This document shows, in pieces, positions 418 through 25,554 of a stretch of 64,000 nt of DNA. The stretch covers positions 4,945 through 68,944 of the forward strand of contig CAZRVD010000003.1 in assembly GCA_964603545.1 (NCBI GenBank), written 5' to 3'. The notes under the pieces were generated by a model, which did no database searches, was not told the DNA's origin, and was given only the letters and a program-made list of their open reading frames with translations. Position 1 is the first letter of the stretch. Each line of letters starts with the position of its first letter. This DNA is from an uncultured Candidatus Saccharibacteria bacterium (lineage in GTDB: Bacteria; Patescibacteriota; Minisyncoccia; Phycocordibacterales; DATDWN01). A program made the position numbers and the translations under genes.

Positions 418-2190
418 CTATTCGAGAATTGCCTTGATACGACGCACACCTGCGGACACCGCCTCTTCCTTTATTATTTTAAAATTTCCTAACACCCCAG
501 TGTTTTCAACATGAGGACCTCCACAAAACTCTTTTGAGTAAGCGTTTTCAAGTGAGTTACCTATATAGTAGACATTTACCTCATCTCCATACTTGTCTCC
601 AAAAAAATGATGAGCTCCTGTTTTCTCTGCATCCTCTTTTTTCATTACCACTTTGTTTACAGGTAAATTTGCTTGAATTTTTTCATTTACAAGCTTTTCT
701 ACTTTTTGCTTTTCTTCGTCAGTTAGTTTTTTATCAAAAGCAAAGTCAAAACGAGTCCTTTCAGTAGTGATATTGCTTCCCTTTTGTGACACTGTCTCTC
801 CTAAAACATCCCTAAGTGCCTGGTGGAGTAAGTGTGTGGCTGTATGATACTTTGTTTCCATTTCTCCCGTACCAGAAAGCCCTCCTTTAAATTTTTGTTC
901 GGAACCAACTCGCGAGAGTTCCTGATGTTCCTTCATGTCTTTTTTAAATTTTTCATAGTCAGGTCGTTCTTTTTTTTGAGCAATAAGAATTGAATCCGTA
1001 AGTTCAAACGGAATTCCGTAAGATGTGTACAAAATAAAAGGATCTATTTCGCCAATATATTTTACCCCTTCCTTTAATTTTGATCTAAATTTACCCTCTT
1101 CATTACTAATAATTTCGTTAATCTTTTCTTTATTTAAAAATAAATTAGGGTAAATATCTTTATATTTTTTAATAAAAATTTCAGAAATGTTTATTAACCC
1201 CCCTTCTTCTATTGATAAAGAATCGGTCCATCTTATTGCCATTCTAATTAGTCTACGCAAAATATAACCTTTTTCTGTATTTGATGGTGTTACTCCATCC
1301 GATATTAGAAAAATTGATGTTCTAATATGATCGGCCAAAACCCTAGTACCCTTTGTTAGCTCATTTTCATTAGTTGTTATAGAAAGACTTTTAATAAGTT
1401 TCATAACATCTTCAAAAATATCCGTTTCAAAGACACTTTTTTTCCCTTGCACAACCGCAACTATTCTTTCAAAACCGGCTCCGGTGTCTACATTCTTATT
1501 TGGAAGTTCTGAGACAACTTTGCCATCTTTTGCCAAAAACTGCATAAAAACATTGTTCCATATCTCAACAACCTTCTGTTCGTCGTCAGCTTTTAAGTAT
1601 TCATCAAGAGTCATTCCAGAATTAAGTTCTCCTGTAAGGTCGTAAAACATTTCTGTGTCAGGACCGCAGGGACCATTTGGACCAGCAGACCACCAGTTTT
1701 TTTCTTTTGGTCTGAAGTAAATTCTTTCGCCCGTTACTCCGTTTTTCTCAAAAATTTCTTTCCATATTTGAGCAGTTTCCTCATCTTTTGGAGCATTTTC
1801 GTCACCTTCAAAGCAAGTTACATAAAGTCTCTGTGGATCTAGGCCAAAACCTTCTTCTTTCGAGGTCAATAGTTCATAACTCCAGTTAATAGACTCTGTT
1901 TTCCAGTAGTCTCCCAAAGACCAGTTGCCCATCATTTCAAAAAAAGTAAGGTGTGTATTGTCCCCAACTTCATCTATGTCATTTGTTCTTACACATTTTT
2001 GAATGTTAACCAGTCTTTTGCCTTGCGGATGTTCTTGGCCTAAAAGATATGGGACCAAAGGTTGCATTCCTGCCGTGTTAAATAAAACGGAAGGATCGTT
2101 TTCTGGCACGAGTGATGCCGAAGGTATGATTTTATGACCTCTTTTTTCAAAAAAATGTAAAAATTTTTGTCTAATTTCGTTTGAAGTCAT
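418..2190 (-). CDS. alaS: Alanyl-tRNA synthetase, short form (catalytic + tRNA-recognition + editing domains, no C-Ala domain)
   Basis: N-terminus FLHFFEKRGHKIIPSASLVP. The editing domain has HTATHLLHQALRDVLG and CGGPHV. 590 aa versus ~870 aa canonical. Confidence 0.9.
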   Translation of the reverse strand: MTSNEIRQKFLHFFEKRGHKIIPSASLVPENDPSVLFNTAGMQPLVPYLLGQEHPQGKRLVNIQKCVRTNDIDEVGDNTHLTFFEMMGNWSLGDYWKTESINWSYELLTSKEEGFGLDPQRLYVTCFEGDENAPKDEETAQIWKEIFEKNGVTGERIYFRPKEKNWWSAGPNGPCGPDTEMFYDLTGELNSGMTLDEYLKADDEQKVVEIWNNVFMQFLAKDGKVVSELPNKNVDTGAGFERIVAVVQGKKSVFETDIFEDVMKLIKSLSITTNENELTKGTRVLADHIRTSIFLISDGVTPSNTEKGYILRRLIRMAIRWTDSLSIEEGGLINISEIFIKKYKDIYPNLFLNKEKINEIISNEEGKFRSKLKEGVKYIGEIDPFILYTSYGIPFELTDSILIAQKKERPDYEKFKKDMKEHQELSRVGSEQKFKGGLSGTGEMETKYHTATHLLHQALRDVLGETVSQKGSNITTERTRFDFAFDKKLTDEEKQKVEKLVNEKIQANLPVNKVVMKKEDAEKTGAHHFFGDKYGDEVNVYYIGNSLENAYSKEFCGGPHVENTGVLGNFKIIKEEAVSAGVRRIKAILE

Positions 2191-2191
2191 A

Positions 2192-4000
2192 TTATGATTT
2201 TTGTTTACTTAACCATATTTTATATTTATTTGCCATATCTTCAAAACTTATACTGTTACTAGCAATCTCGTCTTTACCATGAACCATATATATTATTGCA
2301 TTCAAATCAACTTTTTTACGTGAACTTTTTACTGCTTTTGCTTTTGAAATTCTACTTTTAGCTCTTTTTAATATCTCAGGAAGTTTTAGTGTTACATTTC
2401 TAATATATGGATCAGCACTTAGCTTTTTGCCAGTAGATATTTTGACTAGTTCATTGAATGTCCTTGAACCTGCTAGTTTCCAGACTTTTGCCATATCTTC
2501 TCCAACTTTTGGGTTGTCTACTATATATCCATACTTTTCAAAGAAATACTCTCTCCATTGTGTTAAGGCTAGAGTTGCGAGTCCGTAACCGTGGTAGGAT
2601 CCTGATGATTCCCAAGAGTAAATATGCGGAACATTCAAAGCCCCCAATGATTCTTCTGATCTTACATAGTACTTTTTAAAATTTGCTTTTGCTATATCCA
2701 AAACTTTTTTTTCTGTAAGATTTTTTGTCTCATATATTTCTTTTTCAAAATTTGCCACAAAAATAATTCCATTTAGTCCAAGAGGTCTAACTGTGTAAGT
2801 TTTTTTAACAATTCTTTCATAAAGATCAAATGGATAGGACTCACCTTTTGAATTTACTGCATATTTAGCTTCCCACTCAGGACTAGAAAACACTGTATCT
2901 AAAAACATGCTTTGGGTTTCAGCCCAAGAAGTAGACATGGGATAATACTCATGATTTACGCAAACATCGACTTGTTCAGAGTTTAAAAGATGTGCGGCAT
3001 GCCCCCCTTCATGAAATAAAGTATGAATTCCTTGAGTACCAGAACCGATTTGATCGGGCACTACATTGCAAGTAAAGTTAGTTGAACCCGCTAATCTTTT
3101 ACCGTTTTCATATTTAACTAGTCCTGGCCAGTGGCAAAAACCATTGCTGTATTTTCCTTTTCTATCTAACAAGTCTAATCTCAATGTGCCGTTTCTAAAA
3201 TCTATTCCCATTCGGCTAAATGATAAACCCCATCTCAACAGAGCATCGCTGAATTGGAAATACTGGTCTTCTTCTTTTGCAAAACTTCCGGACATCATAA
3301 AACTAAAGTTCCAAGGTTTAGTTATGCCCGGCGTCTCGGTTTCAAGTTTTACCACTTCTTTCATTGCGTATTTAGTTTTTATATGAATCTTATCAAAAAT
3401 AGTAAAGAGCTCCTTTTTTGTCATTCCATCTTCTTTTCTAACTTTAAAATCATAAAAATCACTGTACCCGATAGTTTTAGCGTACTTGTTTCTTAGTTTT
3501 ACTACTTTTATGTAATCTTTTACTAAATATGTTGCTAGTTTTTCTTTTGCCTTAAAACAAGCTTCTCTGACTTTTTCATCAGGATCAGTGTATGTCATTG
3601 TAGACATCTTATTAATTGACGCTTTTACGAATTTTTTTGTATTCGGATCAACATAGCCTTCTTTTCTCGTAGCAAGTTTCTTATGTAAAAAATCTTCAAG
3701 TTTATCGATTTCTTTTTTAATTCCTCTTGCTTTGTCGGGTATTTGATAACCTTCAAAAAATTTTAACCATGTGTTTAGTCTTGTTACTTCTTCTTTATTT
3801 GCGCCTTTCAACAACTCTTTGATTTTTTTTGTATACCTTGAGTCTGATCTAAAAGCATCTCTTTTTGCTAGTGCATCAGCCTTCTTTTTATTAACTGAGT
3901 GGTCTCCCATATATGATAACCAAAAATAGTCTTCATAATTTTTATGCAGTTCAAAATACTTATTGTTTAATTCTTCCAAATATTCAGTCGCTTTGCTCAT
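2192..4000 (-). CDS. M3-family zinc metallopeptidase (oligoendopeptidase F-like)
   Basis: HEGGH zinc-binding motif ([13 protein letters not shown]) in a ~600-aa protein, in the position and length typical of PepF-like M3B peptidases. Confidence 0.55.
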
Positions 4001-8393: not shown

Positions 8394-9662
8394 CTATACT
8401 GGAAGATTGGCTGGAGCCTCAGCTTTTTTAGATTCAATTCTAGTAAACGATGGAGTAGTCGATACACCCCCAGGAAAGTGAAATAGAGTGGCGAGTTCTT
8501 CTGTGTTCAGTATAAAATGTGGTCTCTTGTATGGCCAGTAAAAATGTTCTCGTCTTTTGTATGCATCTAGAAAATCCTGCTTATCAGTGCTTAATGTTTT
8601 GGCATTTCTGTCTTTCCATGCCAAAAGAGGAGTTTTATATTTTGGAGAAAGTGCTCCTGTTGGAGCAAAATTGTTAAGTGACGAGTTAAAGTGCATTATT
8701 CCACCAACAACACCACCGACATTGCCCATACTAAAAACATCTTTTAGGGCAAAGTAAATAACTCTAATACCCGTATCAAATCCTTTTTTTGAAACACTCC
8801 TATCTAGTGCACTAATAGTATCCTTTTCTACTTCAGTTAACTGCCTGCCTGTTCCTGGGATAAGTTTTCCGTCTTTGTCTTTCTCACCTTTTGCTTTAGC
8901 AACAATATCATCAATTTCTTTCTTTGCTCCTTCCTTCCACCTTAAGTCTTTTTTTTCAAATATGTTCCACCATTTTCTGTCAGGATCTCTTTCTTCTGAA
9001 ACATGTGCACGTATTAGAATCTGAATCCAGACCTGGTTACCCTTGTCTAATGATCCCAAAAACTCTATTAATGGTGTCATTGGATCTAACTTGTACTCTT
9101 CTTCTGGGTTTTTATCCATCCCGTAATCAATATATGTCTTGATAGGAAAAGCATCTGCTTTTTTTAATTCAAACTCTGTAACCCACATACTGTTAACCTC
9201 AGGGTCGTAAACTACAGGCAACGTGTAGTCTTCTACTTCATAAATTTCTACTCCAGGATATTGGGAGTAAATATTGGCTTCTATTTTCTTTTTTTCTCTT
9301 TTTTTGGTTCTAATATAAAAATGGACACTACCGTCTATTGAGACTATTTCTAAAGAATGCTGATTTCTAACACTACCCTTCCAGTACTTTTCATACCAGT
9401 TCGCTTCTCCCAGAGTACTATGCATAGCAGCAATACAAAATTCCATAGCTGCAGGAGATTTGAATATCTCCCGTGGTAGTTTTATTTCTAAAAGAACATA
9501 TTCTTGTTTTGCAAAAAAAAGAGCTCTTCTGTATTTAACCCAAAAATCCCATGCTGTGTTTATTAAAAACAAAGGAACAGCAACGTATAAAAAGTAGTAA
9601 ACCACACTCCAAATCTGCCTAAACATGTCACTTCGGAGCACGTCAGTAATTAAATCAAACAT
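8394..9662 (-). CDS. Hypothetical membrane-anchored protein
   Basis: Long ORF with an N-terminal TM segment; no motif I can name. Confidence 0.4.
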   Translation of the reverse strand: MFDLITDVLRSDMFRQIWSVVYYFLYVAVPLFLINTAWDFWVKYRRALFFAKQEYVLLEIKLPREIFKSPAAMEFCIAAMHSTLGEANWYEKYWKGSVRNQHSLEIVSIDGSVHFYIRTKKREKKKIEANIYSQYPGVEIYEVEDYTLPVVYDPEVNSMWVTEFELKKADAFPIKTYIDYGMDKNPEEEYKLDPMTPLIEFLGSLDKGNQVWIQILIRAHVSEERDPDRKWWNIFEKKDLRWKEGAKKEIDDIVAKAKGEKDKDGKLIPGTGRQLTEVEKDTISALDRSVSKKGFDTGIRVIYFALKDVFSMGNVGGVVGGIMHFNSSLNNFAPTGALSPKYKTPLLAWKDRNAKTLSTDKQDFLDAYKRREHFYWPYKRPHFILNTEELATLFHFPGGVSTTPSFTRIESKKAEAPANLPV

Positions 9663-9727: not shown

Positions 9728-10765
9728 CTAAACAACACTATACTTACCGTCTTTTGATTTTTTAAAAAATTTAGGATTCTGAAGATTCACCATAATTGTA
9801 TTTTCCTTAACGTATCTTTCCTTCAAAACCTTCTTTACTATCTCCTCTTTAGTTAATGGTCCGCTTTTCTCTAGTATGCCTTTTATAACATCTCTTACAA
9901 CACCACTCATATATCCCCACTCAGAAAGTGCATAAAGTCCTCTTCCAACTAGAACAAACCTAGGATCTTTTATAAGTTCATTGTGAGTAGTGGCTACATG
10001 AGCCTTTTTGTTAAATAACTCAGTAATTAGCTTAGCAACTTCCCTAAAGTGTATTGGAGAGCCATGTCGTCTGATAACTAGATACGCGTAGTCTCTCATA
10101 CCCTTTGCATTGATGTTTGAAGAAGTAGCCTTACCCCATTCACCAAGCGGATTTTTGTCTATTAGTTTTGAAAGCGCCAACCATCTTTTTGCAATTTCTA
10201 CATTTTTATATTTTTCTGAAACTTCCTTAACGTTTTCTAGAAACTTTTCAATCATATCTGATTCAAGTAAAATCTCGTCGTCAGACAAAGTTGAATAAAG
10301 CTGTCGCAATGAATTATGAATCTTTTTTGATAGCTCTTTGTCTACAGACCATCTGTGCTTGAATTCTGTATCTTCTTTTTCTTTTGTAAAATCCTCACCA
10401 ATGACTAGTAGGAAGTGAATTTGGTTTTGAGTAGCCTTATCCTTTGATATGTGTTTCAAAAGTGCCTCTTCTGAAACAGTAGAACCAAGGTCAGTTATTA
10501 GTTTAAAAAGTTCGTCAAAAGCCTCCTTTTCCTTTACATACTCCTTAGACTTTCTAATATTTATAATTGAATAGTTTTCAATTTGTCTAACTCTTTCTCT
10601 TGTTATTTTGTACTTTTTACCAATAGCCTCAAGGGTCATTCTCTTTGTATCGTCACCTAGTCCAAAACGAGACACAAGAACATCTCTTGATCTGTCAGAA
10701 GCAACTCCAAGTAGTCTTTTTACTACTTGCTTTGGTTTAAATTTAATTGGTGTTTTTTCGCTCAT
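9728..10765 (-). CDS. DNA-binding protein with an N-terminal sigma-70 region-4-like HTH and a C-terminal HARE-HTH-like domain
   Basis: LTLEAIGKKYKITRERVRQIE resembles sigma region 4.2. RFVLVGRGLYALSEWGY resembles HARE-HTH. Confidence 0.45.
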   Translation of the reverse strand: MSEKTPIKFKPKQVVKRLLGVASDRSRDVLVSRFGLGDDTKRMTLEAIGKKYKITRERVRQIENYSIINIRKSKEYVKEKEAFDELFKLITDLGSTVSEEALLKHISKDKATQNQIHFLLVIGEDFTKEKEDTEFKHRWSVDKELSKKIHNSLRQLYSTLSDDEILLESDMIEKFLENVKEVSEKYKNVEIAKRWLALSKLIDKNPLGEWGKATSSNINAKGMRDYAYLVIRRHGSPIHFREVAKLITELFNKKAHVATTHNELIKDPRFVLVGRGLYALSEWGYMSGVVRDVIKGILEKSGPLTKEEIVKKVLKERYVKENTIMVNLQNPKFFKKSKDGKYSVV

Positions 10766-10880: not shown

Positions 10881-13736
10881 TTATCCTATAACAAAGTTGA
10901 CCAGTCTATTTTTTACAAATATCACCTTTTGTATCGGTTTACCTATAAGCCACTTATCCACACCTGGAACTTCTTTAGCCATATTCACAATCTGCTCTTC
11001 TGTCATATCAAAAGTTACTAAACATTCACCTCTAACTTTGCCATTAATCTGTATTGCCATCTTAACTTCTACTTCTTGTAATTTTTTAGGGTCTGCTTTT
11101 GGCCAAGCTTCTAGAGCAAGTAAATTTTTATGTCCTAACTCTCTCCAAAGTTCTTCCGTTATATGTGGGGCAAATGGAGAAAGAATTTTTAAGAAAATTT
11201 CAAAATCTTTTTTCGAAATCGAATCAAATTTTTCCATTTCGTTAAGCAAAATCATCATGCTGGAGACCGCTGTGTTAAATGCCATTGTTTCAATGTCATC
11301 GGAGACCTTTTTTACAGTTTTATTGAGCAATATTTCAAATTTATCCTGGGATTTACCTTTTTTACTTACTTTTTCTTTAATCCTCCACACTCTTTCAAGA
11401 AACCTCCTAACCCCGAAAATATTGTCTTCATTCCAGGCTATCGGCTCAGAAAAAGGCCCCATGAACATCTCATACATTCGTAAAGTGTCTGCCCCATAAT
11501 GCTTTACTATTTCGTCTGGATTAATAACATTACCCTTTGATTTTGACATTTTTTCTCCCCCTTTTGCCAAAACTAAACCATGCGATGTTCGTTTCTTATA
11601 AGGTTCAGAGAATGGAACTAACTTAATATCATATAAAAACTTATTCCAAAAACGTGAGTATAAAAGGTGAAGAGTAGTATGTTCCATACCTCCGTTGTAC
11701 CAATCAACTGGCATGAAATATTTTAACTTCTTCGGATCAGCTAGTTTTTTGCTATTCTTTGGATCAGTGTATCTTAAAAAGTACCAAGAAGAACCAGCCC
11801 AGTTGGGCATAGTATCTGTTTCTCGTTTAGCAAAACCCTTACACTTTGGACATTTGGTATTTACCCAGCTGGAAATAGAAGCGAGTGGCGACTCTCCTGT
11901 GTCTGTTGGTTCGTACCTTCCTATTTTAGGTAATTTAAGTGGTAATTCTTTCTCTGGGAGTGGAACGACTCCACATTTTTCGCAATGCACGACAGGAATA
12001 GGTTCTCCCCAATACCTCTGACGACTAAAAACCCAATCTCTAAGCTTATACTTTGTAACAACTTTACCTCTTACGAATCTAGTAATCTCTGCTTTCGCTT
12101 TTTCTGAATCCATTCCTGAAAATTTACCGGAATTAATTAAAATACCATCTCCAGAGTAAGTTAACTCTTCTAAAAATGATTGCCAAGCATATTTATGAGC
12201 CTCTGGGGACAGAAACTCCATCATTTCTTTTTTAGATAACCACTGCACCTCATGAATCGCTTGTTCTTCCATTGACATTTCTTCTCTTTTTCCGTCCTGA
12301 AGTTCAAAATACATAGTTTCAAAATGTGCTAATCGATTTACTTTTTTCGGTACGTGGTAAAACTTACTGTGTATTTTTCCAAGATTCTTAATAAACTTTG
12401 GATGCAAATAACCTGTCTCTTGGATAATTTCCGAAATTGCTCCATCTTTCATACTCTGACCTTCTTCTGGTGCACCAGTAATTAATGTCCTCCAATCCAC
12501 TTTTTTCCATTTTAGCCCTATATATTTATCCTCTGACCAATGTTTAACGATTGCCATTACAGCACTTCTTTCAACAAAAGGTACCCCATCTTTAACCTTT
12601 CCTTGTATCGTTTTATCAACAAAAAGAGGCTCAATTACATTTTTAATTTTTATATTGTATTTTTTGGCGAAGTCCCCATCCCTCTCGTCATGTGCTGGAA
12701 CAGCCATTATGGCTCCAGTTCCATACGAAGCCAAGACATAGTCCGCAATCCAAACCGGAATTTGCTCATTGTTTGCAGGGTTTACAGCATGAATACCTTT
12801 TATTTCTACACCAGTTTTATCTTTTTCTTCTTTTGTTCTTTCTATTTCTGTCTTATCTTTAATTTGCTTAAAATATCTTAGAACTTCCTCCTTGTTCTCT
12901 ATTTGAGGCCAAAGTTTCTCAATTACTCCATGCTCTGGAGCAAGAACAAGATAAGTTGCACCAAAAATAGTATCAGGTCGAGTTGTAAAAACTTTTATTT
13001 TTTCACTACTTCTCCAAACATCAAAATCAATCTCACTACCCTCAGACTTTCCTATCCAATTCCTTTGCTGAATTTTAATTTTTTCTAAATAATCTACTGT
13101 ATCTAAGTCCTTATCTAACCTATCTGCATATCTTGTAATTCTAAGCATCCATTGTTCTTTTTCTCTTTTTTCAACTTTTGTTCCACATCTTTCACAACAA
13201 CCATCCACCACCTCTTCGTTCGCCAAGCCTATCTTATCCTTTGGACACCAGTTAATATTTATTCTATCTTTATAGGCTAAATCGTGTTTAAGTAGCTGTA
13301 AAAAAATCCACTGCGTCCACTTGAAGTATTTTGGATCTGTTGTGTTCACCTCACGAGACCAATCAAAAGAAAAACCAAGTGCTTGAAGTTGTCTTCTAAA
13401 TATATCTGTATTCTTTTTTGTAACAACTGCAGGTGGGATACCCGTTTTAATTGAGTAATTTTCAGTTGGAAGTCCGAACGCATCCCATCCTATCGGATAT
13501 AGAACATTAAATCCTTGTGCTCGCCTCTTTCGAGCTATTATATCCATTGCTGTGTTACTTCTAATATGACCTACATGAAGCCCATCCCCAGAAGGATAAG
13601 GAAACTCTATAAGTCCGTAAAATTTCTTTTTTTTAGATAGATCTTTAGCTTGAAAAACTTTCTTTCTCACCCACTCTTTCTGCCACTTTTTCTCTACCGT
13701 TAAGTGATTGTAGTCTTTCTTCATGATTTTCTTCAT
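10881..13736 (-). CDS. leuS: Leucyl-tRNA synthetase carrying an extra ~150-aa Nudix-like insertion
   Basis: HIGH-type motif PYPSGDGLHVGHIRS, editing-domain TTRPDT, AHDERD, KMSKSKGN. Insertion at about aa 375-525. Confidence 0.95.
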   Translation of the reverse strand: MKKIMKKDYNHLTVEKKWQKEWVRKKVFQAKDLSKKKKFYGLIEFPYPSGDGLHVGHIRSNTAMDIIARKRRAQGFNVLYPIGWDAFGLPTENYSIKTGIPPAVVTKKNTDIFRRQLQALGFSFDWSREVNTTDPKYFKWTQWIFLQLLKHDLAYKDRININWCPKDKIGLANEEVVDGCCERCGTKVEKREKEQWMLRITRYADRLDKDLDTVDYLEKIKIQQRNWIGKSEGSEIDFDVWRSSEKIKVFTTRPDTIFGATYLVLAPEHGVIEKLWPQIENKEEVLRYFKQIKDKTEIERTKEEKDKTGVEIKGIHAVNPANNEQIPVWIADYVLASYGTGAIMAVPAHDERDGDFAKKYNIKIKNVIEPLFVDKTIQGKVKDGVPFVERSAVMAIVKHWSEDKYIGLKWKKVDWRTLITGAPEEGQSMKDGAISEIIQETGYLHPKFIKNLGKIHSKFYHVPKKVNRLAHFETMYFELQDGKREEMSMEEQAIHEVQWLSKKEMMEFLSPEAHKYAWQSFLEELTYSGDGILINSGKFSGMDSEKAKAEITRFVRGKVVTKYKLRDWVFSRQRYWGEPIPVVHCEKCGVVPLPEKELPLKLPKIGRYEPTDTGESPLASISSWVNTKCPKCKGFAKRETDTMPNWAGSSWYFLRYTDPKNSKKLADPKKLKYFMPVDWYNGGMEHTTLHLLYSRFWNKFLYDIKLVPFSEPYKKRTSHGLVLAKGGEKMSKSKGNVINPDEIVKHYGADTLRMYEMFMGPFSEPIAWNEDNIFGVRRFLERVWRIKEKVSKKGKSQDKFEILLNKTVKKVSDDIETMAFNTAVSSMMILLNEMEKFDSISKKDFEIFLKILSPFAPHITEELWRELGHKNLLALEAWPKADPKKLQEVEVKMAIQINGKVRGECLVTFDMTEEQIVNMAKEVPGVDKWLIGKPIQKVIFVKNRLVNFVIG

Positions 13737-13795: not shown

Positions 13796-14722
13796 CTAGT
13801 AACCTAAAGGCTTCGGGTACATCGCTGTGTTTATTTTTTGTTCAAAACAATGTCTTCCAGCTGGGTGTGTCCAGATGACATCTCCGTAATATGGATAAGC
13901 TTGGTTGTTAGTTAGTTGTTCATCAGATGCCTTGTTGAATTCCGCACAAAGTGAATACGTCAGAGTTCCTGTTTTTACATACTCGTAGGGTTTCTGGCTT
14001 TGTGGATCAACCATCGAACCATAGTAGGCAGCTGCCTTAAGTTCATCTACGTTATTTGGTAACTTTGAATTTGTTGCGTAATAAGTTTGTACCTGACTGT
14101 TTAAATTCTGTAAATCACTTAGTTTTTGCTGGTCGTATTTATACAATCTTTGTGTCCGAGGAGAACCTAAAACTGAAAAACCCCAGACTATAGAGCCAAG
14201 AACAATTACAAAAGCAAAAATTCTCCACATATTTCTAGATTTTGGAGTCAGTTTTCCTCTTATATCAGAAATATAATATGTAAACACCCCTCCAGTTATA
14301 ACTAATAGGACAAGGACCTTTAGAATGAAGCCTGTAGTGAGTTCCTGTCCATCAATAAAGTAGTAAAGGACTGTGATAAGATCTATCGCGAGAGCTACCC
14401 CCGCAATAAAAAGTGTTAGAAATGTTAACCATTTGTGTACTCCAGCATTTTTTCTCTCAGGATCAGAGTCATAGTCCTTCGCTAAAAGCCACATTAACAA
14501 AATAAATATTGGGAAAAATATTGCCAGGATAGAAACAGGCCACGATATAGAGCTACTACCAAAATAATAATAACCGTTAGTTATTTGTGGATATGCCTTG
14601 TTAATAACAGAGAACAAAAGAGTAACCAGACTTCCCACTACCGTGTACAGGGAAATAGTTGCTCCCAAGTTTAAGAAAAAATCCTTAACGTTACTTTTTG
14701 ACTTCATTGTTGTTGGTTCCAT
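13796..14722 (-). CDS. Hypothetical polytopic membrane protein
   Basis: Multiple hydrophobic helices; no catalytic motif recognised. Confidence 0.4.
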   Translation of the reverse strand: MEPTTMKSKSNVKDFFLNLGATISLYTVVGSLVTLLFSVINKAYPQITNGYYYFGSSSISWPVSILAIFFPIFILLMWLLAKDYDSDPERKNAGVHKWLTFLTLFIAGVALAIDLITVLYYFIDGQELTTGFILKVLVLLVITGGVFTYYISDIRGKLTPKSRNMWRIFAFVIVLGSIVWGFSVLGSPRTQRLYKYDQQKLSDLQNLNSQVQTYYATNSKLPNNVDELKAAAYYGSMVDPQSQKPYEYVKTGTLTYSLCAEFNKASDEQLTNNQAYPYYGDVIWTHPAGRHCFEQKINTAMYPKPLGY

Positions 14723-25350: not shown

Positions 25351-25481
25351 CAGAATTCAGGACGCAGATTCACGACAAGCGCTACTGCGCTCGTAAACCG
25401 TGAATCTGTTCGAGTCCTGACGTAAAGCTTTGCTTTACTTCGGGTCCACAACGAAAAAAGCGCCTCTCGGCGTTTTCGTTG

Positions 25482-25554
25482 TGGACCCGACAGGACTCGA
25501 ACCTGCCACCCCATCATTGCAAATGATGTGCTCTACCAGATGAGCTACGGGCCC
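25482..25554 (-). tRNA. tRNA-Ala (anticodon UGC)
   Basis: Reverse complement GGGCCCGTAGCTCATCTGGTAGAGCACATCATTTGCAATGATGGGGTGGCAGGTTCGAGTCCTGTCGGGTCCA. Cloverleaf folds, anticodon loop TTTGCAA, G3:U70 Ala identity pair, 73 nt, CCA not encoded. Confidence 0.85.

Follow-up and report, generated by a model that had tools for sequence, protein, structure and literature searches.

Bacterial aminoacyl-tRNA synthetases are usually regarded as architecturally conservative. The leuS gene in the 64,000-nt stretch of contig CAZRVD010000003.1 analysed here (the window, to which all coordinates refer unless another locus is named) raises the question of whether a second, unrelated enzyme is housed inside a leucyl-tRNA synthetase (LeuRS), and what it would do there. 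An initial annotation, made from the letters alone, had read the segment 12162-12614 as a degenerate, probably non-catalytic Nudix-like domain between the editing domain and the half of the catalytic core that bears the KMSKS signature. The segment was well chosen, and all the peptides quoted for it fall within it (residues 375-525); the domain itself proved slightly larger. According to Pfam, structure prediction with AlphaFold2 (AF2), Foldseek, LeuRS relatives and alignment to Thermus thermophilus LeuRS, residues ~369-527 (12156..12632, minus strand) almost certainly form a genuine Nudix domain of a LeuRS-dedicated family, of the subtype called type Q below.

The Pfam profile NUDIX (PF00293) matched residues 414-508 with 28.0 bits in the whole protein, above its gathering score of 21.1, and the excised segment reached 31.8 bits (E = 1.6e-7). 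An AF2 model, which had been named at the outset as a check, was built for residues 366-533 on the alignment A2. It showed the Nudix fold with a mean predicted local distance difference test score (pLDDT) of 93.5 and a predicted template modelling score (pTM) of 0.88. The top 50 Foldseek matches of this model in the PDB were Nudix proteins throughout. The best was 2AZW, a MutT/nudix protein of Enterococcus faecalis (E = 1.4e-10, template modelling score (TM) 0.73/0.83), followed by 3gwy, 3i7u, 9cxx, and 1vc8, and the runners-up included a putative CTP pyrophosphohydrolase, the Aquifex diadenosine tetraphosphate (Ap4A) hydrolase, Rv2985, MutT1, and Ndx1. NCBIfam offered no specific Nudix subfamily for the insert, the best E-value being 0.03. 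Both the match to the Nudix hidden Markov model and the alpha/beta/alpha sandwich were present, while the canonical box GX5EX7REUXEEXGU was not. Judged by its model, the segment is an independently folding MutT-like Nudix domain inside a Parcubacteria LeuRS. The profile of the family also matched residues ~1110-1220 of Cas9 (PDB 8u3y, 8tzz, and 8spq) weakly, at E~2e-3 to 5e-3, which could reflect chance or a Nudix-like subdomain.

The boundaries were defined against T. thermophilus LeuRS (Tt; reference 1H3N). Window residue 369 paired with Tt 363 and residue 524 with Tt 374, so ~155 residues stand in place of the 10-residue loop Tt 364-373, and close LeuRS relatives without the insert gave the same limits. 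The spacer of about 40 residues that had been assumed for ordinary bacterial LeuRSs was too high; it is ~10-30. The insert starts 16 residues past D353, and the Pfam match to the editing domain (PF13603) breaks off at the very start of the segment, at position 145 of the 185 in its profile. The Nudix domain thus sits within connective polypeptide 1 (CP1), which spans Tt 224-417, and not behind the editing domain as first supposed. It occupies a beta-hairpin loop, and the synthetic and editing motifs are intact. In the full-length AF2 model, a beta-strand at 368-373 leads from LeuRS directly into the Nudix domain, with a pLDDT of 84-92 at the junctions.

The junctions read KNVIEP/LFV and LEEL/TYSGDG. 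Flanking repeats did not exceed chance, the GC content did not shift across the insert, and no intein marks were seen at the junctions (no Cys/Ser start, no His-Asn end, no Hint fold). Together with the Nudix fold, these features ruled out an intein, a mobile element or a mis-assembly, and the idea of a fused neighbouring gene, raised together with that of an intein, was likewise not borne out. There is virtually no chance that the segment is anything other than a real inserted domain, for instance an ordinary CP1/CP2 or leucine-specific region whose likeness to Nudix is fortuitous, as the initial annotation had allowed. The Pfam score exceeds its threshold, AF2 predicts the Nudix fold confidently, more than 250 homologous copies exist, and the same in-frame architecture occurs in more than 100 independent assemblies. 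Moreover, the leucine-specific domain is absent from the window LeuRS.

The distribution of the domain was scanned in one genome per GTDB species, with the trimmed alignment A2 as query. This yielded 113 relatives of the insert, and 80 of these loci were retrieved. In most of the 80, the domain was embedded in LeuRS at exactly the site found in the window. All 80 had Patescibacteria-type titles save three probable mislabels (L017, L029, and L055), contigs titled 'uncultured Gammaproteobacteria bacterium' that carry typical LeuRS-Nudix genes of the candidate phyla radiation (CPR); the labels of these metagenome-assembled genomes are probably wrong. A HMMER search of 1.84 billion representative proteins returned 296 clusters at E<=1e-3. 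The long hits checked with Pfam were LeuRS in 19 of 19 cases, with no IleRS, ValRS or other host among them. In addition, the domain is present in 110 of the 120 LeuRSs that match the window protein best. Because of these results, the family is, as far as sequence searches tell, dedicated to LeuRS and restricted to the CPR (Patescibacteria), in agreement with the early suggestion of a lineage-specific insert.

The family also exists outside LeuRS chains. When the insert alone was used as query, free-standing Nudix proteins of ~160 aa with at most 63% identity were found, along with a few LeuRS fragments. The gene of the closest one (P0001) lies 46 nt upstream of leuS. In three species (including L009 and L019), the free-standing copy precedes leuS by 46-51 nt, and that of a fourth species, L057, overlaps leuS. 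No second copy of the family was found elsewhere in the 64-kb window.

The alignment of LeuRSs, proposed initially as a way to trace the spread of the insert, turned up both the many carriers described above and nearest relatives that lack it. The closest LeuRSs, P0169-71 and P0175 (81-85% identity), are cleanly without the insert, and so are six further clusters at 74-77% identity; an insert-free junction reads IKEVIS-GN-LIINSDKF. Because the nearest relatives do without it so cleanly, the Nudix module appears to be an accessory to LeuRS function that can be gained or lost. Neighbour-joining trees were computed from simple distances over 774 shared LeuRS columns with 200 bootstraps. The window enzyme formed a clade with P0169, P0170, P0171, and P0175 in 200 of 200 replicates, and it was nested within this clade, since the four excluded it in only 2 of 200.

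The relationships of the insert itself were different. At least two insertion sites occur in these enzymes: site 1 is the site of the window, and site 2 is found at the border of CP1 on its N-terminal side, past reference residue ~212-215. The window Nudix domain shares 69-71% identity with that of P0262, although the two LeuRS bodies share only 63%, and the next nearest are the site-2 copies of P0263 and P0020 (67-68%). Vertical co-inheritance of cassette and host found little support, as the pairwise identities of insert and body were weakly correlated (r=0.19), over body identities so narrow (0.62-0.77) that they limit the inference. The absence in close relatives would be due either to repeated deletion with the same junction or to re-acquisition at the same site by the window lineage. 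Re-acquisition fits the proximity to P0262 and then to the site-2 copies of P0263 and P0020, and the weak correlation of insert and body. An exchange of cassettes between LeuRSs is suggested, and so is a history of the window copy partly decoupled from that of its host, given that its closest copies reside in more distant LeuRSs, some of them at the other site.

Conservation was evaluated in 263 unique near-full-length copies, in which two sister subtypes were distinguished by the Nudix box, type E (n=96) and type Q (n=156). The box of type E is canonical (Gx5Ex7REUxEExGU), with E7 at 100%, R15 at 97%, E16 at 98%, E19 at 100%, and E20 at 100%. That of type Q reads Gx5Qx7[A/M/T/R/S]EUx[E/Q]ExGY; position 7 is Gln in 100% of copies, position 15 is A, M, T, R, Q or S, E16 is kept in 99% and E20 in 100%, and position 19 is Glu in 83% and Gln in 15% (24/156), Gln19 being found in free-standing genes as well. 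E7/R15 and Q7/non-R15 covary (Fisher p=5e-53), and this structural pair therefore looks remodelled rather than decayed. Common to both subtypes are R390, W410, K411, W415, K464, N467, R468, E491, H495, and W499 (window numbering). Counted from the end of the box, positions +16 (F), +17 (Y), +21 (K), +24 (N), and +25 (R) are likewise conserved in both.

The window copy has its box at G421-Y443, GAPEEGQSMKDGAISEIIQETGY (12408..12476, minus strand), with G1, E16, I17, E20, G22, and Y23 kept and three positions altered, Q427 (position 7), S435 (15), and Q439 (19). The replacement of REx2EE by SEx2QE had thus been read correctly (S435, E436, Q439, E440). The family signature after the box, HSKFYHVPKKVNR, covers residues 456-468 (12333..12371, minus strand). 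Of the 45 positions conserved in the family (>=85%), 41 are retained in the window copy. The four exceptions (G422A, T428S, E430K, and A432G; family median 2, 90th percentile 5) are, together with Q19, largely common to the nearest relatives P0262, P0263, and P0020, and are therefore not private decay. The ratio of insert to body identity ranks 44th of 69, a typical divergence. A relaxed or decaying domain was rejected on these grounds, and by its sequence the domain of the window is unremarkable among type Q, S15 and Q7 being traits of the subfamily.

The architecture of these enzymes varies widely. A site may hold a single copy or two in tandem, and the total per enzyme reaches three (L015, L067, P0019, P0020, P0052). 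The 263 copies comprised 97 of type Q and 72 of type E at site 1, 28 of type Q at site 2, and 24 of type Q and 9 of type E as free-standing genes. LeuRSs with two or three copies were encoded at L015, L016, L026, L027, L029, L035, L041, L051, L055, L059, L062, and L067. Other domains are inserted in CPR LeuRSs as well. Near site 2, alpha/beta-hydrolase (PF06821/PF00561), Ham1/ITPase (PF01725), and DUF559/REase-like (PF04480, PF18741) domains were detected, and a HAD phosphatase (PF13419) follows the second CxxC of the ZN-2 region in some enzymes. Such proteins (P0039, P0113, P0140, P0021, P0234, P0261, P0252, P0151, P0205, P0249, and P0176) reach ~1,500 aa. At L001, the LeuRS encoded after the free-standing Nudix gene (914-3763) has an insert of its own of ~125 aa at the start of CP1, with no precomputed Pfam match.

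What, then, might the domain do? We propose that it would be a metal-dependent pyrophosphohydrolase carried on the mobile editing domain, and not a dead scaffold. A pyrophosphohydrolase is predicted because E16 and E20, the downstream Glu/His pair, the Lys-x2-Asn-Arg motif, and several Trp residues are all invariant. Its substrates would be Ap4A, Ap3A or Ap4N, formed from leucyl-adenylate (Leu-AMP) and nucleoside triphosphates (NTPs), or related stray nucleotides, and its role may be an on-board clean-up or the control of an alarmone. We see an even chance that the domain is both catalytically active and functionally tied to LeuRS.

A substrate of the Ap4A type is our preferred assignment, yet a tentative one, and we hold it to be rather unlikely. 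Ap4A/Ap6A hydrolases were among the nearest matches in sequence and structure (1F3Y, 3I7U, 1VC8, 9CXX, and CT771), where the likeness is weak (sequence-profile E~5e-4). The window copy has Y460 at +17 after the box; across the family, +17 is Y in 62% and F in 37%, and +16 is F in 97%. A Tyr 16-18 residues past the box is said to have been put forward by Dunn et al. (1999) as a criterion for Ap(n)A hydrolases. Aminoacyl-tRNA synthetases are established makers of Ap3-5N, which Nudix enzymes degrade (PMC7705103).

Several findings weigh against the proposed reading. The PDB neighbours are only 15-21% identical to the insert and include MutT1, NudB, NudI, a CTPase, ADP-ribose pyrophosphatase, and RppH, and because of this low identity and these many other specificities the Ap4A assignment is a weak one. 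In the box of type Q, Glu7 is always Gln and Arg15 is mostly lost. Replacement of Glu19 by Gln, as in the window, occurs in type Q only (24/156 versus 0/96 in type E, p=7e-6). Furthermore, LeuRSs with several copies always join type Q with type E (13 of 13). Finally, the unrelated HAD, Ham1, alpha/beta-hydrolase, and DUF559 domains are inserted in the same LeuRSs, so that a permissive host or a mere passenger fits as well as functional coupling does. The changes in the box suggest a weaker catalytic constraint on type Q, or another role. The pairing hints at a pseudo-heterodimer or at two distinct substrates, and since type E accompanies type Q in every multi-copy enzyme, type Q alone might be a non-catalytic partner.

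The altered box and the constant pairing are what would be expected of a pseudo-Nudix domain, which would bind a nucleotide, a cap-like ligand or a tRNA without catalysis and play a part in regulation or recognition, or accompany type E as its inactive partner. We consider this explanation, close to the one proposed initially, unlikely. Binding alone would not require the residues that are best kept: the metal-ligand glutamates E436 (position 16) and E440 (position 20) are 99-100% conserved (E16 98-99% across the subtypes), as are E491 and H495 in type Q. Nor did the window copy show the loss of metal-binding box glutamates that marks non-catalytic Nudix domains of the NUDT9-H type. Type Q also occurs as a stand-alone gene and is the sole copy in most LeuRSs (97 single site-1 copies). 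As to Q19, the equivalent E56Q change in Escherichia coli MutT reportedly costs only ~10-100-fold in kcat, against ~10^5 for E53 or E57, figures for which a search gave no confirming source. With Q7 and S15 as subfamily traits, Q19 in 24 of 156 copies, and the conserved positions largely retained, the description 'degenerate, probably non-catalytic' was not supported by the alignments.

The other inserted hydrolases bear on a passenger, that is, an ordinary house-cleaning Nudix enzyme without any tie to aminoacylation. It might deal with NTPs that are damaged or in excess in a CPR cell that depends on salvage, and it would reside in LeuRS for the reason that the CP1 hinge tolerates insertions and an essential gene guarantees expression. 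Besides the HAD, Ham1/ITPase, and alpha/beta-hydrolase domains at nearby hot spots of the same LeuRSs, this explanation is favoured by one free-standing copy that seems to share an operon with a HAD hydrolase away from leuS, by another among TatD and HD-domain nucleotidase genes, and by the repeated absence of the domain from close relatives. It sits less well with the exclusive association with LeuRS among the 19 long hits checked, with the free-standing copies immediately upstream of leuS in four species, and with the use of two different sites in the same enzyme, which is hard to ascribe to tolerance alone. We accord the passenger a modest chance of being the right explanation.

Another activity that could be imagined for a domain tethered to CP1 is that of an RNA-end pyrophosphohydrolase similar to RppH or NudC, which would strip tRNA-Leu, or another RNA bound close to the acceptor end, of its 5'-triphosphate or of an NAD or Np4 cap. 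Structures of E. coli RppH were among the Foldseek matches, CP1 adjoins the acceptor end of the tRNA in LeuRS-tRNA complexes, and the conserved Trp and Lys/Arg residues could contact nucleic acid. However, the RppH matches were poorer (8-11% identity, root-mean-square deviation 4.5-6.5 A) than those to small-molecule Nudix enzymes, the 5' ends of mature tRNAs are monophosphates left by RNase P, and no RNA-binding extension was evident. We regard an RNA-end function as very unlikely.

The favoured pyrophosphohydrolase can be placed in a wider picture, which is speculative and in our estimation improbable as a whole. CPR LeuRS would be a platform for swappable cassettes (Nudix Q/E, HAD, Ham1/ITPase, alpha/beta-hydrolase), the Nudix pair would destroy the Ap4N-type dinucleotides or other adenylylated side products of its own enzyme, and the cassette of the window would have been re-acquired by recombination after its loss in the clade. 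Three hot spots, located within the editing domain or close to it, would exchange cassettes with one another and with a free-standing gene that precedes leuS. If this were true, minimal cells would possess a built-in link between the charging of leucine and the control of nucleotide alarmones or house-cleaning.

The host enzyme is a bacterial-type LeuRS. The leuS gene (10881..13736, minus strand) is a single open reading frame of 951 codons, identified by TIGR00396, the Tt alignment and the full-length AF2 model. In the NCBIfam scan the 951-aa protein scored 996 bits with the equivalog TIGR00396 (leuS_bact), above the cut-off of 548.4 bits. An NCBI entry, 'leucyl-tRNA synthetase [Parcubacteria group bacterium Gr01-1014_46]' (P0168), matches it with 100% identity; NCBI places the start four codons past the first ATG (13725-13736), giving 947 aa rather than 951 aa. 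The HIGH signature appears as HVGH at residues 54-57 (13566..13577, minus strand) and is invariant in alignment A4. The KMSKS signature, read from the sequence, is at residues 729-733 (11538..11552, minus strand). The protein also has ZN-1, the anticodon-binding domain, and the C-terminal domain. The full-length AF2 model had a pLDDT of 87 and a pTM of 0.74, and its core superposed on solved LeuRS structures with TM 0.81-0.83. Right before KMSKS (11538-11560, residues ~725-730) the alignment skips from Tt 584 to Tt 637, which corresponds to the missing leucine-specific domain.

The editing domain can be followed on either side of the insert. The part before it comprises residues 225-368 (12633..13064, minus strand) and matches positions 1-145 of PF13603. 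The part after it, delimited by Pfam, relatives and the Tt alignment, comprises residues 528-565, TYSGDGILINSGKFSG ... KLRDW (12042..12155, minus strand). The threonine-rich editing motif TTRPDT lies at residues 251-256 (12969..12986, minus strand) and corresponds in the Tt alignment to Tt 247-252; T251, T252, R253, and T256 were invariant in the 75 homologs of alignment A4. In the AHDERD motif (12678..12695, minus strand), D353 aligned with Tt D347, the conserved editing Asp of LeuRS, and it too was invariant in these homologs. With the threonine-rich motif and the conserved Asp both present, the CP1 editing site of the window LeuRS is intact at the level of its motifs.

The genes around leuS were also surveyed. 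The next gene downstream (9728-10765, minus strand) encodes 345 aa with a Sigma70 region 4 and a HARE-HTH domain, and a similar 345-aa protein follows leuS at the distant locus L057 (4544-5581), suggesting conserved synteny of the two genes. A 422-aa open reading frame without a Pfam match lies at 8394-9662 (minus strand). Directly upstream of leuS is a DUF5671 membrane protein (13796-14722, minus strand), and a tRNA-Ala(TGC) at 25481-25554 (minus strand) was the sole RNA gene detected in the 64 kb. At other loci, on the downstream side of leuS and at a distance of 1-3 kb, a different free-standing Nudix gene with a canonical box (GHIEEGET..REIxEETG) recurs; it was found at L001 (4492-5022), within a leuS-x-nusB-nudix-RNase III cluster, at L009 (9141-9671), and at 12 further loci.

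The window shows a broader phenomenon, apparently undescribed so far, in its simplest and commonest form. We know of no description of complete foreign enzymes inserted inside a CP1 editing domain, and in the literature we found no account of a Nudix domain in LeuRS or of hydrolase cassettes within CP1; automatic Pfam annotation already marks PF00293 on LeuRS-Nudix proteins. If the domain does act on dinucleotides made by LeuRS, this would be the first synthetase with an Ap4N-removing activity of its own, and it would offer a handle on Ap4N control in genome-reduced CPR bacteria. Even as a passenger, the domain would be informative, in that two or three hot spots mark where LeuRS accepts ~160-400 extra residues, which is of use for enzyme engineering. 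The pair of Q and E subtypes is a natural experiment on which residues of the Nudix box are needed. The long insert may also explain that NCBI names several of these LeuRSs merely 'class I tRNA ligase family protein'.

Compared with known systems, the insert resembles the Nudix hydrolases of PF00293, of which 2AZW, 3I7U, the T. thermophilus Ap6A hydrolase Ndx1 (1VC8), Rv2985 of Mycobacterium tuberculosis (9CXX), and the lupin Ap4A hydrolase (1F3Y) are the nearest solved. It shares with them the alpha/beta/alpha sandwich, the loop-helix-loop box with G1, E16, U17, E20, and G22, a length of ~155 aa, and the existence of free-standing genes. It differs by the low identity given above, by Gln7, non-Arg15, and Gln19, by being embedded in another enzyme, and by a signature of its own (LKWKKVDW, HSKFYHxPKxxNR, and E..HE..W, with an N-terminal EPLFV strand). 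The host shares HIGH, KMSKS, ZN-1, the threonine-rich motif of CP1, and the editing Asp with the bacterial LeuRSs of T. thermophilus (1H3N/2BYT) and E. coli (4AQ7/4ARC). In contrast to the T. thermophilus enzyme, it has a 155-aa enzyme domain for the loop Tt 364-373 and lacks the leucine-specific domain (Tt ~585-636). An IleRS with an N-acetyltransferase (GNAT) domain (NCBIfam NF040702) is likewise a class Ia synthetase that has gained an unrelated catalytic domain. Host and guest fold are different there, whereas the guest of LeuRS lies within the editing domain, occurs at several sites and in several copy numbers, and alternates with a free-standing gene. For the proposed function, the analogy is with LysRS and NUDT2, a synthetase that can make Ap4N and a Nudix enzyme able to remove it. 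These are separate proteins whose link is experimentally established, whereas in LeuRS-Nudix the two are joined in one polypeptide and their link is a proposed one.

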